From IMG/VR virus record IMGVR_UViG_2585427792_000002: a DNA stretch of 29,926 bases; one strand, 5' to 3'. The DNA comes from a virus (Duplodnaviria > Heunggongvirae > Uroviricota > Caudoviricetes). Both the position numbers and the translations under genes were made by a program. The notes below the pieces were generated by a model, which saw only the letters and a list, made by a program, of their open reading frames with translations, ran no database searches and was not told the DNA's origin. This document shows, piece after piece, positions 6,263 through 13,826 of the stretch; positions within the stretch are counted from its first letter, which is position 1; each line of letters starts with the position of its first letter.

Positions 6263-6960
6263 AAAACATCGCCGCACAGATGGTTAATTTTGACCGTGAG
6301 CAGATGCGTCGGATCGCCAACAACATGCCGGAACAGTACGACGAAAAGCCGCAGGTACAACAGGTAGCGCAGATCATCAATGGTGTGTTCAGCCAGTTAC
6401 TGGCAACTTTCCCGGCGAGCCTGGCTAACCGGGACCAGAACGAACTGAACGAAATCCGCCGCCAGTGGGTGCTGGCTTTCCGGGAAAACGGGATCACCAC
6501 AATGGAACAGGTTAACGCAGGAATGCGCGTAGCCCGTCGGCAGAATCGACCATTTCTGCCATCACCCGGGCAGTTTGTTGCATGGTGCCGGGAAGAAGCA
6601 TCCGTTATCGCCGGACTGCCAAACGTCAGCGAGCTGGTTGATATGGTTTACGAGTATTGCCGGAAGCGAGGCCTGTATCCGGATGCGGAGTCTTATCCGT
6701 GGAAATCAAACGCGCACTACTGGCTGGTTACCAACCTGTATCAGAACATGCGGGCCAATGCGCTGACTGACGCGGAATTACGCCGTAAGGCCGCAGATGA
6801 GCTTGTCCATATGACTGCGAGAATTAACCATGGTGAGGCGATCCCTGAACCAGTAAAACAACTTCCTGTCATGGGCGGTAGACCTCTAAATCGTGCACAG
6901 GCTCTGGCGAAGATCGCAGAAATCAAAGCTAAGTTCGGACTGAAAGGAGCAAGTGTATGA
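6259..6960 (+). CDS. P: Replication protein P (DnaB helicase loader, 233 aa)
   Basis: ORF-track protein MKNIAAQMVNFDREQMRRIANN... matches lambda P from memory; start overlaps the O stop. Confidence 0.9.
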   Translation: MKNIAAQMVNFDREQMRRIANNMPEQYDEKPQVQQVAQIINGVFSQLLATFPASLANRDQNELNEIRRQWVLAFRENGITTMEQVNAGMRVARRQNRPFLPSPGQFVAWCREEASVIAGLPNVSELVDMVYEYCRKRGLYPDAESYPWKSNAHYWLVTNLYQNMRANALTDAELRRKAADELVHMTARINHGEAIPEPVKQLPVMGGRPLNRAQALAKIAEIKAKFGLKGASV

Positions 6961-7247
6961 CGGGCAAAGAGGCAATTATTCATTACCTGGGGACGCATAA
7001 TAGCTTCTGTGCGCCGGACGTTGCCGCGCTAACAGGCGCAACAGTAACCAGCATAAATCAGGCCGCGGCTAAAATGGCACGGGCAGGTCTTCTGGTTATC
7101 GAAGGTAAGGTCTGGCGAACGGTGTATTACCGGTTTGCTACCAGGGAAGAACGGGAAGGAAAGATGAGCACGAACCTGATTTTTAAGGAGTGTCGCCAGA
7201 GTGCCGCGATGAAACGGGTATTGGCGGTATATGGAGTTAAAAGATGA
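6957..7247 (+). CDS. ren: Ren (Rex exclusion-resistance) protein (96 aa)
   Basis: ORF-track protein MTGKEAIIHYLGTHNSFCAPDVAALTG... matches lambda Ren from memory; start overlaps the P stop. Confidence 0.8.
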   Translation: MTGKEAIIHYLGTHNSFCAPDVAALTGATVTSINQAAAKMARAGLLVIEGKVWRTVYYRFATREEREGKMSTNLIFKECRQSAAMKRVLAVYGVKR

Positions 7248-9334: not shown

Positions 9335-9409
9335 GGGTCAGTCGTATAAAGGTCATTACGGAAGGCTGTTAACCTTCTTATCGTGGTTCGAGTCCACGCT
9401 GTCCCGCCA
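9335..9409 (+). tRNA. tRNA-like element, anticodon loop CTGTTAA (GUU, Asn-type), 75 nt, non-canonical D-arm
   Basis: Manual fold: acceptor stem 6 of 7 pairs (GGGTCAG/CTGTCCC), perfect anticodon stem GAAGG/CCTTC, T-arm CGTGG-TTCGAGT-CCACG, 3' CCA encoded; D-arm is short or shifted. May be a pseudo-tRNA. Confidence 0.4.
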
Positions 9410-9414
9410 AATAT

Positions 9415-9490
9415 GCTGGTTTAGCTCCAATGGTAGAGCGGTCGCCTTGTAAGCGAATGGGTAGCGGTTCAAGTCCGTTAACCAGCACCA
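9415..9490 (+). tRNA. tRNA-Thr (anticodon UGU), 76 nt
   Basis: Manual cloverleaf: perfect 7-bp acceptor stem (GCTGGTT/AACCAGC), D-stem GCTC/GAGC with GG in the loop, anticodon loop CTTGTAA, T-arm AGCGG-TTCAAGT-CCGTT, discriminator A plus encoded CCA. Confidence 0.6.
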
Positions 9491-9824: not shown

Positions 9825-10321
9825 TGCCTCCATCATTACGAAAAGCCGTTGCTGCGGCTATTGGTGGCGGGGCTATTGCTATAGCATCTGTGTTAATCAC
9901 TGGCCCAAGTGGTAACGATGGTCTGGAAGGCGTCAGCTACATACCATATAAAGATATCGTTGGTGTATGGACTGTATGTTACGGGCATACCGGAAAAGAC
10001 ATTATGCTCGGTAAAACGTATACCGAAGCAGAATGCAAAGCCCTCCTGAATAAAGACCTTGCCACTGTCGCCAGACAAATTAACCCGTACATCAAAGTCG
10101 ATATACCGGAAACAACGCGCGGCGCTCTTTACTCGTTCGTTTACAACGTTGGTGCTGGAAATTTCAGAACATCGACGCTTCTTCGCAAAATAAACCAGGG
10201 CGATATCAAAGGCGCATGTGATCAGCTACGGCGCTGGACATACGCTGGCGGTAAGCAATGGAAAGGGCTGATGACTCGCCGTGAGATTGAGCGTGAAGTC
10301 TGTTTGTGGGGGCAACAATGA
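9824..10321 (+). CDS. R: SAR endolysin (lysozyme with N-terminal signal-arrest-release domain), R21-like
   Basis: Hydrophobic Gly/Ala-rich N-terminus ([20 protein letters not shown]) followed by a lysozyme-like body; start overlaps the holin stop; classic pairing with a pinholin. Confidence 0.8.
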
Positions 10322-10755
10322 GTAGAGTAACCGTGATTATCTCCGCTCTGGTTATCTGCATCATCGTCTGCCTGTCATGGGCTGTTAATCATTACCGTGA
10401 TAACGCCATGACCTACAAAGAACAGCGCGATAAAGCCACATCCATCATCGCTGATATGCAGAAGCGTCAACGTGATGTAGCAGAACTCGACGCAAGATAT
10501 ACAAAGGAACTTGCTGATGCTAACGCGACTATCGAAAGTCTCCGTGCTGATGTTTCTGCTGGGCGTAAGCGCCTGCAAGTCGCCGCCACCTGTGCAAAGT
10601 CAACGACCGGAGCCAGCAGCATGGGCGATGGAGAAAGCCCAAGACTTACAGCAGATGCTGAACTCAATTATTACCGTCTCCGAAGTGGAATCGACAGGAT
10701 AACCGCGCAGGTTAACTACTTGCAGGAATACATCAGGACGCAATGCCTTCGATGA
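10318..10755 (+). CDS. Rz: Rz inner-membrane spanin (145 aa)
   Basis: ATG at 10318 overlaps the endolysin stop; N-terminal TM helix then a coiled-coil-like periplasmic region; embedded Rz1 in the +1 frame. Confidence 0.7.
10511..10702 (+). CDS. Rz1: Rz1 outer-membrane lipoprotein spanin, embedded in Rz
   Basis: +1-frame ORF entirely inside Rz; signal peptide with lipobox VSAC, then a proline-rich mature region ([12 protein letters not shown]). Confidence 0.6.
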
Positions 10756-11197
10756 TAGCGATAATTTTACTCATCATCCTTCACATCTGGCTCTGTAGAC
10801 AGGGTGGTGATCACTTCTGGAGTGAATCCAGATTAAACATCTCATTGCTGATGCTTGAAGTTGAGCATCTGGCGCGCGGTAAGGGGCTGCGTTGAGATAA
10901 GAGCCAGTTCATTACAAAGCCTATCTACGGGTGGGCTTGATAATGAAACCGGAATTTATTCTGGGCAACCAGTTACGGCAGTACAGCGAAACAACCCAAG
11001 CCAGTAAGTGGGGAAATAACACTGGCAGCCACTGAAAGATGAACCTCCAGCCTTATGGCAAAAAAGATTCTTTGTGGTGGCGGACTGATGGAAAGACATC
11101 GGTTATTGCAGAGACCATTCAATGAGTGGTCTCGACAATGGCTTATATCCTGCTAAGAGTGATTAACTGGGTGGCAAAAGTTCACCACCAACATCAA

Positions 11198-11629
11198 TTA
11201 GATTAAATTATTTCGATAAGCAGAATCGATTAGAGCGTTCATAAAGAGATACTCAACATCTTCGGTATAGTCGATGTCTATTGGAGCTGTTGAGTCAAGC
11301 GCCCCAAAATGCATGCAATTGTTCCAATCAAGAAAAATTTTATGAAACTCCTGTTTTTTTCCATCTCGCGATGTGTAAAAAGTAATAACCCCAATTAATG
11401 AGCCTTCGTGAAGTGAAAGCTTACTTTCTGTAAAACACTTAAAGCGTAGCTGTGGAATTGAAACCTCAAGCTCTCCATCATTTAGCTCTATGGAAATTTG
11501 CTTATTAAGGTCTCGTTTGTTATTCCATGCGGTGTTAACACGTTCTAATAAATCATTCGTATTTTGCTGTAATAACTCACCTTTCCTAGAAAGTAACTGT
11601 GACAATCCGATAAACGTTAATGAGCTCAT
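11198..11629 (-). CDS. Hypothetical protein (143 aa), antisense moron between lysis and packaging modules
   Basis: Minus-strand ORF with ATG at 11627-11629 preceded by AAGGTGA (the track's longer GTG start at 11656 is rejected); AT-rich; opposite orientation to all flanking late genes. Confidence 0.65.
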   Translation of the reverse strand: MSSLTFIGLSQLLSRKGELLQQNTNDLLERVNTAWNNKRDLNKQISIELNDGELEVSIPQLRFKCFTESKLSLHEGSLIGVITFYTSRDGKKQEFHKIFLDWNNCMHFGALDSTAPIDIDYTEDVEYLFMNALIDSAYRNNLI

Positions 11630-11649
11630 AAATTCACCTTTGAGAAAAA

Positions 11650-12201
11650 ATGGCACTCACAGACAAGCAAGAGATGTTCTGTCGCGAGTACCTCATCGAT
11701 TTAAACGCCACGCAAGCGGCTATTCGGGCGGGGTACAGCGCAAAAACAGCCAACCGTACCGCATCCGAAAACCTGTCAAAACCTGACATCAAGTTAAGAA
11801 TCGCCGAACTGAAAGCGCAACGCAATGATCTTGTTGGTATTAATGCAGAATATGTACTTAATCGCCTTATTGAAATCGACCAGATGGATGTGCTTGACAT
11901 TCTCCTGCAAAACGGTGAGCTAAAACCCATTAAAGACTGGCCTAAGGTATGGCGCACAACGTTATCAGGAATGGATGTCGTGGAGATGGCATCCGCAGAT
12001 AGCGCCGCACTTCTGAAGAAAATCAAATGGCCTGATAAGGTTAAAAACCTTGAGTTGCTCGGGCGTCATGTTTCTGTTCAGGCGTTTAAAGACAATGTCA
12101 AAAATGAAGTGACTGGTGCTGACGGAGGACCAGTCAGAACAGAAATTACCAACTTAACGCCGGAGCAGGTTGCAGAAGCGTATAGAAAAATGATGGGCTA
12201 A
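11650..12201 (+). CDS. Terminase small subunit (non-lambda type)
   Basis: 183-aa ORF immediately upstream of and nearly abutting the large terminase; N-terminal region ([30 protein letters not shown]) resembles small-terminase DNA-binding domains; not lambda Nu1. Confidence 0.65.
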
Positions 12202-12203
12202 GT

Positions 12204-13826
12204 ATGCCGTTACCATTCCCCTTCGATTTTAAAAATCCTGATTACCAGATGGTTTTTGAATGGCGGATGGAACGCTTACAGCGCATTCGCCAGAACCCTG
12301 AAATATTGCCAGCACTAAAACAGTTTTACCGAACCAATCCGGCTCAGTTCATCATCGACTGGGGCATGACAACGGACCCGCGTAATATTGATTATGGCCT
12401 GCCGGTGACCATTCCGTTTTTACTCTTCCCTAAGCAGGAGGAGTGGATCCACTGGATTATGGAACGCTGGAGCAATCGGGAGAATGGTATTACCGAAAAA
12501 TCCCGTGAAATGGGGCTCAGTTGGACCGCGATCGGACTGGCATGCTCGCTTTGTCTCTTCAACAAAGAAATGGTTATCGGTTTTGGCTCCCGTAAAGAGG
12601 AATACGTCGACAGCACTGGTGACCCGAAAGCATTGTTCTGGAAGGCGCGCAAGTTCGTGGAAACGCTACCTGTAGAGTTTCGCGGTTCGTGGAGTGAGAA
12701 GAAGCACGCGCCATATATGCGTGTTGAGTTTCCTGAAACTGGTGCCGTTATCAAAGGCGAGGCTGGCGATAATATTGGTCGTGGTGACCGTACCACGCTT
12801 TATCTGGTTGATGAGGCTGCATTCCTTCAGCGTCCTCTGCTGATTGATGCGGCGTTGTCACAAACGACGCGTTGCCGTATCGACCTGAGTTCAGTTAACG
12901 GCATGGCTAACCCGTTCGCTCAGAAGCGTCATGGCGGGAAGATACCGGTATTCACATTCCACTGGCGGGATGATCCTCGCAAGGATGAAGAGTGGTATCG
13001 CAGGGAATGCGAGAAAATCGATAATCCGGTGGTGGTGGCACAGGAACTTGATCTGAACTACAGCGCATCAGCGGAAGGCGTCCTGATTCCATCCGAATGG
13101 GTACAGGCTGCCGTTGATGCGCATATCAGACTGGGTATCCAGCCAACAGGCAAACGACTTGGCGCGATGGATGTCGCTGATGAAGGCAGGGACAAAAATG
13201 CCTTTTCCACCCGTCATGGCTTCCTCCTGGAAAATGTGCGGGAATGGTCCGGTGTGGGCAGCGACATTTATCAGTCCGTCGAGAAGGTTTTCGGCTTTTG
13301 CGAACAGGACAACCTCGAAGAGTTTCGCTTTGACGAGGACGGGCTGGGCGCTGGCGTTCGCGGCGATGCACGCGCTATCAACGAACTGCGTAACGCTGCG
13401 CGTCGACCGTCAATACTTGCCACACCGTTTCGAGGTAGTGGCGCGGTATTTGATCCGGATGATGAAGCTGTTCGCGGGGACAACGGGCAAGCCGCACGTC
13501 TGAACAAGGACTTCTTCGCTAACGCCAAAGCCCAGAGCTGGTGGCGGTTACGTAAACTTTTTCAGAATACCTGGCGCGCCGTGGTTGAAGGTATGGCTTA
13601 CAACCCGGACGAAATCATCTCAATCAGCAGTAGCATGGCACTCAAAGATAAACTCATCATCGAGCTTTCGCAGCCGACCTATTCCATTAATGGTGTGGGA
13701 AAAATAGTTATTGATAAACAGCCTGATGGAACCCGATCGCCAAACCTTGCCGACTCGGTGATGATCAACTATGCCCCAATGAATTCAGCCCTGAACATCT
13801 GGGAGCTGCTAGGGAGACAGGCCTGA
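12204..13826 (+). CDS. Terminase large subunit (540 aa)
   Basis: Size and position (after the small subunit, before the portal); acidic motifs consistent with an ATPase/nuclease, but no HMM was run. Confidence 0.7.

Follow-up and report, generated by a model that had tools for sequence, protein, structure and literature searches.

An antisense 143-residue gene next to the small terminase gene of a lambdoid E. coli prophage occupies a swappable cargo slot

Why does a lambdoid prophage carry a single gene that runs against its late operon, exactly between lysis and packaging? The DNA analyzed here, called the window, is a stretch of 29,926 nt from a lambdoid E. coli prophage that, over the 1-kb segment compared, shares 99.8% identity with the prophage of strain SCU-301. 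In the SCU-301 prophage the lambda-like early genes are followed by Q, by tRNA-Asn and tRNA-Thr, and by holin, RrrD lysozyme and Rz; after Rz come TerS, TerL, a DUF1073 portal and myovirus-type tail genes. The gene in question comes after Rz (10306-10755) and before the small terminase of the Terminase_2 type (11650-12201), and in the annotation of the SCU-301 prophage it is the sole minus-strand gene of the late region. It starts with the ATG at 11629 and encodes 143 residues beginning with MSSLTFIGL. Its Shine-Dalgarno sequence, AAGGTGA, occupies 11640-11634 on the minus strand, 4 nt ahead of the ATG. The N-terminus MS(x)LTF is common to all homologues. A longer GTG start at 11656 was rejected; it overlaps terS, and its extra residues are absent from every homologue. 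The GC content of the ORF is 0.359, compared with 0.464 for terS and 0.493 for the window. The RefSeq counterpart of the protein (WP_000097127.1) is annotated 'hypothetical protein'. An earlier sequence-only reading had described an AT-rich, minus-strand ORF with a good Shine-Dalgarno sequence, placed between Rz and terS and opposite to the late genes. The sequence, the translation and the starts of the homologues agree with that description, as do the base composition and, for position and orientation, the SCU-301 annotation.

The prophage shows several further features around this gene. An Rz1-type o-spanin frame with the lipobox LLGVSAC is embedded in Rz (10511-10702, plus strand) and is unannotated in the SCU-301 RefSeq record (L001). 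Overlapping the end of Rz is a 50-aa ORF whose N-terminus is hydrophobic (10743-10895, plus strand); it is hypothetical protein WP_001139681.1 in the same record. From this ORF to 11151 the DNA is 92-98% identical to many P22-like phages (epsilon34, Sf6, CUS-3 and others). Its distal part, 10908-11151, is largely non-coding and is conserved with P22-like phages and with sibling prophages that lack the 143-aa gene; it contains a hairpin at 11111-11133 with a perfect 7-bp stem, GAGACCA...TGGTCTC. tRNA-Asn(GTT) at 9335-9409 and tRNA-Thr(TGT) at 9415-9490, both on the plus strand, follow the Q antiterminator and precede holin. An Rfam match to the lambda cIII thermoregulator element at 170-228 on the minus strand (88.5 bits) confirms a lambda-like early-left region. 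In two remnants of the E. coli C type (L018:4677-5435 and L032:3977-4152), a truncated DUF1073 portal is labelled 'anti-CBASS protein Acb1 family protein' by PGAP, and this label looks like an annotation artefact.

The 143-aa ORF is a genuine gene under purifying selection. The dN/dS between the copies in loci L004 and L005 is 0.18. Between the window and L004, pN is 0.18 and pS is 0.83 in the coding frame, and the shifted frames show no such asymmetry (pN/pS 0.33/0.31 and 0.34/0.21). All 15 clusters of close homologues (68-99% identity; the named sources include Enterobacter, Citrobacter and Klebsiella) are exactly 143 aa long with zero indels. An exhaustive profile search of 1.84 billion representatives returned about 16 stand-alone proteins of 143-148 aa and two fragments, and no fusion of the family to other domains was seen in it. 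Profile matches of 357-752 aa consist of multiple stretches and were treated as spurious; two of them are confirmed repeat proteins. Members from Kosakonia, Pantoea and C. koseri, at 20-27% identity, came from a word-indexed profile search. All members belong to Enterobacterales; the family is small, ranges from 143 to 152 aa with identities down to 20%, and keeps its length across six or more genera. Positions M1, L20, P59, F63, F84, A137 and I143 are invariant or nearly so, and the positions conserved family-wide are predominantly hydrophobic, of the core type.

This family has no counterpart in the resources searched. Pfam, NCBIfam, PHROGs and PADLOC gave nothing reproducible for the window protein and up to 20 members, and the PADLOC-DB 2.0 defence models assigned 0 families to the window protein and six distant members. 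One marginal PHROG match (phrog_2665, E 0.02, 50 residues) was not reproduced with 20 members at E<=0.01. Searches of PDB sequences, with the single sequence and with the profile, gave chance-level matches only, and these results together bear out the earlier view that no family is assignable. A tblastn search of 50,697 phage records found no homologue of the protein. The sequence-only reading had named homology to a characterised structural or packaging protein as the observation that would count against it; neither PHROGs nor the tblastn search revealed any. A close-alignment profile search of IMG/VR identified nine contigs with the family gene, and a close-alignment search of species-representative genomes gave no family match. 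In the literature searched there is no mention of the 143-aa protein, of the sibling cargoes described below or of the TerS accession.

The protein is soluble and acidic (pI 5.0, net charge -6), and across members of the family the net charge is -3 to -9 with a pI of about 5. It has no signal peptide, lipobox or TM segment (maximum Kyte-Doolittle value 0.61; the first Cys is residue 65). With a diverse alignment (A2), AlphaFold2 predicts its structure with a pLDDT of 90.3 and a pTM of 0.85, and the five models reach 88-90. This model supersedes an earlier run with close homologues only, which was unstable (79.6, the other four models 47-60). The predicted fold is an α/β sandwich in which a helix of residues 6-36 is followed by six antiparallel strands within 46-108 and a helix of residues 125-139. 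A Foldseek search of the PDB with this model gave nothing significant. The sole significant viral structural match is a 151-aa protein of Burkholderia phage Mana, A0A873WDE3 (Foldseek E 1.5e-5, TM 0.74), which we take to be gp15 (QPB09410.1), the only 151-aa protein in that record. Gp15 is likewise uncharacterised. It is encoded by a terminator-flanked extra gene that separates gpV from the tail-completion genes in the late operon of a P2-like phage (L037 9269-9724, plus strand), another accessory-looking position. Unlike the 143-aa gene, it lies on the same strand as the late genes and away from any terminase, and no relation between the two is detected at the sequence level (hhalign probability 0.2%).

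The predicted model is also an α/β sandwich in the manner of the Frataxin/CyaY family. The likeness to Frataxin/CyaY and to T3SS-chaperone-like sandwiches is at the level of the fold only, with 9-13% identity. The first helix is longer than in CyaY (31 residues) and the protein is larger by about 35 residues. Pfam Frataxin_Cyay matches neither the window protein (E<=10) nor any of 20 members (E<=1), and CyaY/frataxin chains are absent from the results of the PDB sequence search. Since the conserved positions read as core residues, the protein is probably a stoichiometric, non-enzymatic binding protein rather than an enzyme. An acidic protein without a DNA-binding motif argues against a classical DNA-binding regulator.

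Comparison with related prophages delimits the foreign segment precisely. Pairwise breakpoints and junction sequences define an exchangeable cassette of 494 bp that contains this gene alone (Table 1). The right boundary falls within 11643-11650 of the window in 11/11 comparators; the left boundary is at 11151, and the match to P22-like phages extends through this position. The foreign segment is thus 11152-11645 and not the entire gap between Rz and terS. Its GC content is 0.364, compared with 0.486 for the flanks, and low GC relative to the own locus is also found in six other loci with a family gene. No terminal direct or inverted repeats were found at the cassette ends. In the empty site of prophage L034 the flanks are 47 nt apart, with a small hairpin and a GGAG RBS between them, against 494 bp in the window. 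The hairpin, GGGATA...TATCCCTTTT, stands ahead of terS. Presence and absence among close relatives with sharp boundaries and a deviant base composition, both hallmarks of a moron, are therefore found at this locus.

Table 1. Coordinates of the gene, its cassette, the neighbouring signals and the alternative slot contents (positions refer to the window unless a locus is given)
Feature	Position	Strand	Basis
143-aa protein-coding gene	11198..11629	-	ORF, purifying selection, homologues, AlphaFold
Exchangeable cassette, 494 bp, only this gene	11152..11645	.	Pairwise breakpoints vs 14 loci, junction sequences
Left flank, outside cassette	10908..11151	.	Conserved with L033 and L034, which lack the 143-aa gene
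Stem-loop, 8 bp on RNA, GGUGGUGA/UUGCCACC	11170..11189	-	RNAfold of 3' flanks
Spacer between divergent start codons, 20 nt	11630..11649	.	Sequence
Terminase small subunit, terS (PF03592 Terminase_2)	11650..12201	+	Pfam E 7e-40, contexts, breakpoints
terS first ~57-60 nt	11650..11708	+	Upstream-region alignment, TerS N-termini
terS 5' remnant upstream of family gene	L010:~6920-6985; L008:~6920-6980		Alignment
Cargo: 182-aa ORF, 91 genomes incl. E. coli C	L017:1933-2481	-	
Cargo: 90-aa two-TM ORF, 11 genomes	L016:2204-2476	-	
Cargo: 151-aa ORF, 6 genomes	L030:1323-1778	-	
Cargo: YodC (DUF2158) + DUF6953 pair, loci L033, L036	L033:1308-1774	-	
Cargo: YkgJ-like CxxCxxCC Cys-cluster protein, locus L035	L035:1243-1776	-	
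Slot without annotated gene	L020, L034		

The same slot holds other genes in other prophages. This terS is present at >=80% coverage in 217 of 5,426 complete E. coli genomes, and the 143-aa gene in 7. Sibling prophages with 94-100% identical terS carry one of five other unrelated antisense cargoes or an empty site, and all five cargo types start 19-28 nt from the terS ATG. An identical 183-aa TerS is found with three states of the slot: the 143-aa gene, the 90-aa gene and no called antisense gene. The 182-aa and 151-aa cargoes were considered as divergent members of the 143-aa family, and hhalign against the family profile showed no relation. Pfam gave no match for the 182-aa, 90-aa and 151-aa cargoes, and PADLOC no significant match for the 182-aa and 90-aa cargoes. 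The 182-aa cargo has motifs (YRG...WTTD...ENEF) reminiscent of R-S-E ADP-ribosyltransferases; this assignment was dropped for want of Pfam support. Four of the six functionally uncharacterised cargoes, including the 143-aa one, fall into no described family; for the remaining two the matches are limited to domains of unknown function or to a marginal CxxCxxCC motif. The literature searched contains no description of a terS-proximal cargo hotspot. The cargo slot is multi-allelic, with the terS start codon as its fixed edge, and the 143-aa gene is one of its alleles. This gene encodes a new, uncharacterised protein family on a well-delimited moron, which is not a categorically new kind of element.

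The linkage of the family to the terS start codon is tight and family-wide, a point absent from the earlier reading. Nine lineages were examined (percent identity in brackets): the window, L004 (68%), L005/L006 (69%), L048 (36%), L049 (34%), L015 (28%), the Pantoea loci L012-L014 (25%), the Kosakonia locus L008 (22%) and the C. koseri locus L010 (20%). In all nine the family gene and a small terminase of the Terminase_2 type (PF03592) point away from each other. Wherever the contig is long enough, a lambdoid lysis cassette lies on the other side of the family gene. Different large terminases are found in these loci (Terminase_3, Terminase_6 or unclassified). The first ~57-60 nt of terS are nearly identical in DNA sequence across genera, from Escherichia to Pantoea. 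The two start codons are 20-28 nt apart in seven of the nine lineages. The exceptions, L008 and L010, have a different, long TerS (324-343 aa), and directly upstream of the family gene both still carry ~57-60 nt left over from the 5' end of a standard terS. This remnant has decayed in L008 and is almost complete in L010, where a further 156-aa ORF separates it from the real terS. In the lineages examined, the family is confined to the terS-proximal slot across Enterobacterales.

The gene and TerS do not co-evolve. Among the loci with standard TerS (21 pairs) the identity of the gene is uncorrelated with that of TerS (Spearman 0.03, p 0.89). Genes that are 81% identical stand beside TerS proteins of 59% identity, and genes that are 24% identical stand beside TerS proteins of 83% identity. 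Slot confinement, the absence of co-evolution with TerS and the terS remnants in L008 and L010 find their simplest explanation in recombination anchored on the terS 5' end. A separate observation comes from two genomes (L005/L006:7408-8432) with a heavily degraded prophage. Its family gene (69% identity) has survived intact and terS is present as well; it has no large terminase or portal any more, and there are IS (rve) fragments next to it. Retention of the gene in this remnant is compatible with selection or with chance. A 65-aa late-strand ORF that follows the family gene in L004 and L005 has no homologue in the window.

The spacer between the divergent start codons holds AAGGTGA for the 143-aa gene on the minus strand and a weak RBS for terS, GAGA, at 11642-11645 on the plus strand. 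The sequence-only reading had seen a classic moron slot and considered a promoter of its own, to be looked for at 10756-11197 and 11630-11650. The slot itself stands: sibling cargoes, the empty site and base composition identify an accessory, exchanged gene in a variable position. A promoter at 11630-11650 is physically impossible, because the 20-nt gap is filled by two back-to-back RBSs. A sigma-70 consensus was not found in 10756-11197 either, and 10600-12300 contains 0 sigma-70-like sites on both strands against 3.3 expected by chance. Relaxing the threshold revealed no promoter in the 400 nt upstream of the gene, neither in the window nor in four other loci; L010 and L012 supplied the only two 8-of-12 matches, at 250-315 nt upstream, and these are not conserved. 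A possible extended -10 element (TGcCATTTT) over the terS ATG, in antisense, was recognized by eye in 5 of the 7 standard loci and rejected as too weak; it is absent from L012 and L015. Rfam, run on the window and permissively on 10600-11900, gave nothing in or near the cassette. A spacer of ~20 nt with two RBSs means that transcription of every cargo would have to begin inside the 5' coding sequence of terS, and from this geometry we predict an antisense transcription start inside terS.

On the other side of the gene, the stem-loop listed in Table 1 starts 8 nt after the stop codon and has no U-tract. It is a weak candidate for the 3' end of the transcript and was not called in the terminator scan. 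A hairpin behind the stop codon is thus present in the window, and L004, L005, L010, L012 and L015, five of the six further loci looked at, have one too. In these five the hairpins are clearer, GC-rich and terminator-like, and some are then followed by U-runs, for example AAGGGCGC...GCGCCCUUUUGAAUU in L012. Together with the strong Shine-Dalgarno sequence, such hairpins would suit a self-contained unit.

How may such a locus work? We propose that cassettes are exchanged by recombination, with the invariant terS 5' end serving as one homology anchor. Transcription would start within the terS 5' coding sequence and run away from terS, against the late operon. With this direction of transcription, the gene could be expressed while the late operon is silent, i.e. 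in the lysogen. The 143-aa protein would act non-enzymatically by binding another protein, and its likeliest role would be in phage-phage or phage-host conflict, either exclusion and defence or the neutralization of a host or competitor factor. Allelic divergence, cargo turnover, an acidic and non-enzymatic-looking product and antisense orientation together point to a binding protein that is independent of the late operon and acts in conflict. Such a role would explain the deeply diverged alleles and the rapid turnover of cargo. That the gene is a single-gene moron cassette at a recombination hotspot is very probable. The conflict role, argued from context and evolutionary pattern, is tentative and by itself somewhat short of an even chance. 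The joint statement of cassette and binding-protein/conflict role is our preferred reading, and we hold it with modest confidence.

The closest classical comparison is bor of phage lambda, for which, as for the moron concept, we follow Juhala, Hendrix et al. 2000, as cited in PMC12829572. Like bor, the 143-aa gene is an addition to a lambdoid phage genome, placed antisense to the late operon where the lysis cassette gives way to the packaging genes. As with bor and the classical morons, its base composition is deviant, and it is present in some relatives and absent in others. The slot here is tighter than that of bor; it abuts the terS ATG with a 20-nt gap and has no recognisable promoter. The products differ as well. 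Lambda Bor is a lipoprotein, whereas the 143-aa protein lacks both signal peptide and lipobox and is not matched by the Pfam model for Bor (E<=10), and in this respect the earlier judgement 'not bor-like' is upheld.

Within the conflict theme, the protein may be a counter-defence factor, a small acidic inhibitor of host or competitor immunity in the style of anti-CRISPR or anti-restriction proteins. As a specific assignment this is unlikely, although it heads the alternatives considered here.

Another alternative comes from Listeria. In the TERi locus of phage phi10403S (TerI, TerI-80, TerI-180), an antisense prophage gene in the lytic module is transcribed in lysogeny from behind a conserved upstream promoter region that carries alternating unrelated cargo, and several of these cargoes block the packaging of invading phages (bioRxiv 10.1101/2025.02.27.640495). 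An antisense gene behind a conserved region with alternating cargo is also what we find here, with six cargo types and an empty site. Self-immunity genes of the TERi type (anti-TerI1/2) are not found; the cassette has one ORF, and across the loci there is no conserved partner on the same strand. The two systems differ in other ways. TERi belongs to another host phylum and to the early lytic region, whereas the 143-aa gene is at the lysis/packaging junction; the TERi gene encodes 65 aa instead of 143 aa and is accompanied by two self-immunity genes. Lysogenic transcription and packaging inhibition are demonstrated for TERi, while the 143-aa locus is known from sequence only. Among the systems found, TERi is the closest architectural precedent, and we use it as a lead and not as a test.

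By this analogy, the 143-aa protein might bind the TerS or terminase of an invading phage or satellite and block packaging of its DNA, as Listeria TerI does, so that its location would reflect its function. This is about as unlikely as the counter-defence assignment. Recombination on the invariant terS 5' end accounts for adjacency to terS equally well, and five unrelated cargoes have the same adjacency. The gene does not co-vary with TerS. The cassette is monocistronic with no conserved self-immunity partner, while TERi needs two, and no match of the protein to a known terminase binder was found in sequence or fold. A bolder form of the analogy would make the invariant terS 5' end an outward expression platform as well as a recombination anchor, an enterobacterial counterpart of TERi, with the 143-aa family as a new class of prophage-expressed inhibitors that bind the terminase or another assembly protein of competing phages or satellites, and the other cargoes as further conflict genes. 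We consider this speculative picture similarly improbable.

A further possibility gives the transcript the same weight as the protein. With a transcription start inside terS, the leader would be complementary to the terS RBS and first codons, and the antisense leader together with transcription head-on into the late operon might hold down leaky expression of terminase in the lysogen. The start codons are 19-28 nt apart for every one of the six cargo types, and the leaders would begin inside terS; the two RBSs are back to back, and L008 and L010 have kept the terS 5' remnant upstream of the gene. All of this would fit. Against it, the empty-site prophage L034 has intact late genes, the protein is under clear purifying selection and is not a mere spacer, and the decay of the remnant in L008 argues against a strong sequence constraint. 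We regard this as distinctly doubtful, more so than the readings drawn from Listeria.

Strict physical linkage to terS could also mean that the protein is a dedicated helper of the phage's own packaging or late development, such as a TerS cofactor or an accessory factor at the pac site. An identical TerS works without the gene, and also occurs with unrelated cargo, which makes a dedicated packaging role unlikely. The gene is in only 7 genomes, against 217 with terS; it has the opposite strand to the late operon, a foreign base composition and no co-evolution with TerS, and no homology to PHROGs or structural proteins at a meaningful level. Taken together, these points leave the helper role very improbable. 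Finally, a spurious ORF or decaying, functionless pseudogene would agree with the lack of a family, a promoter and a literature mention, but it is effectively refuted by the dN/dS of 0.18, by a length kept across six or more genera down to 20% identity and by an AlphaFold confidence that climbs to 90 with the family alignment, with five models agreeing.

The preferred reading, a single-gene moron cassette whose product would act as a binding protein in conflict, has consequences beyond this prophage. Prophage morons have proved to be a source of new functions in virulence and against phages. The comparison presented here defines a compact and easily clonable unit of 494 bp, an empty site and five alternative cargoes, all in one precisely bounded slot. 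If nothing is expressed from it, the gene would be merely one more hypothetical prophage ORF. If the promoter is inside terS, a coding sequence would double as shared promoter and recombination anchor for swappable cargo. If the cargoes act in phage-phage conflict, the slot would be a new hunting ground for defence and counter-defence genes in E. coli and its relatives. The 143-aa gene is a good but unproven candidate for a phage-conflict factor expressed by the prophage.
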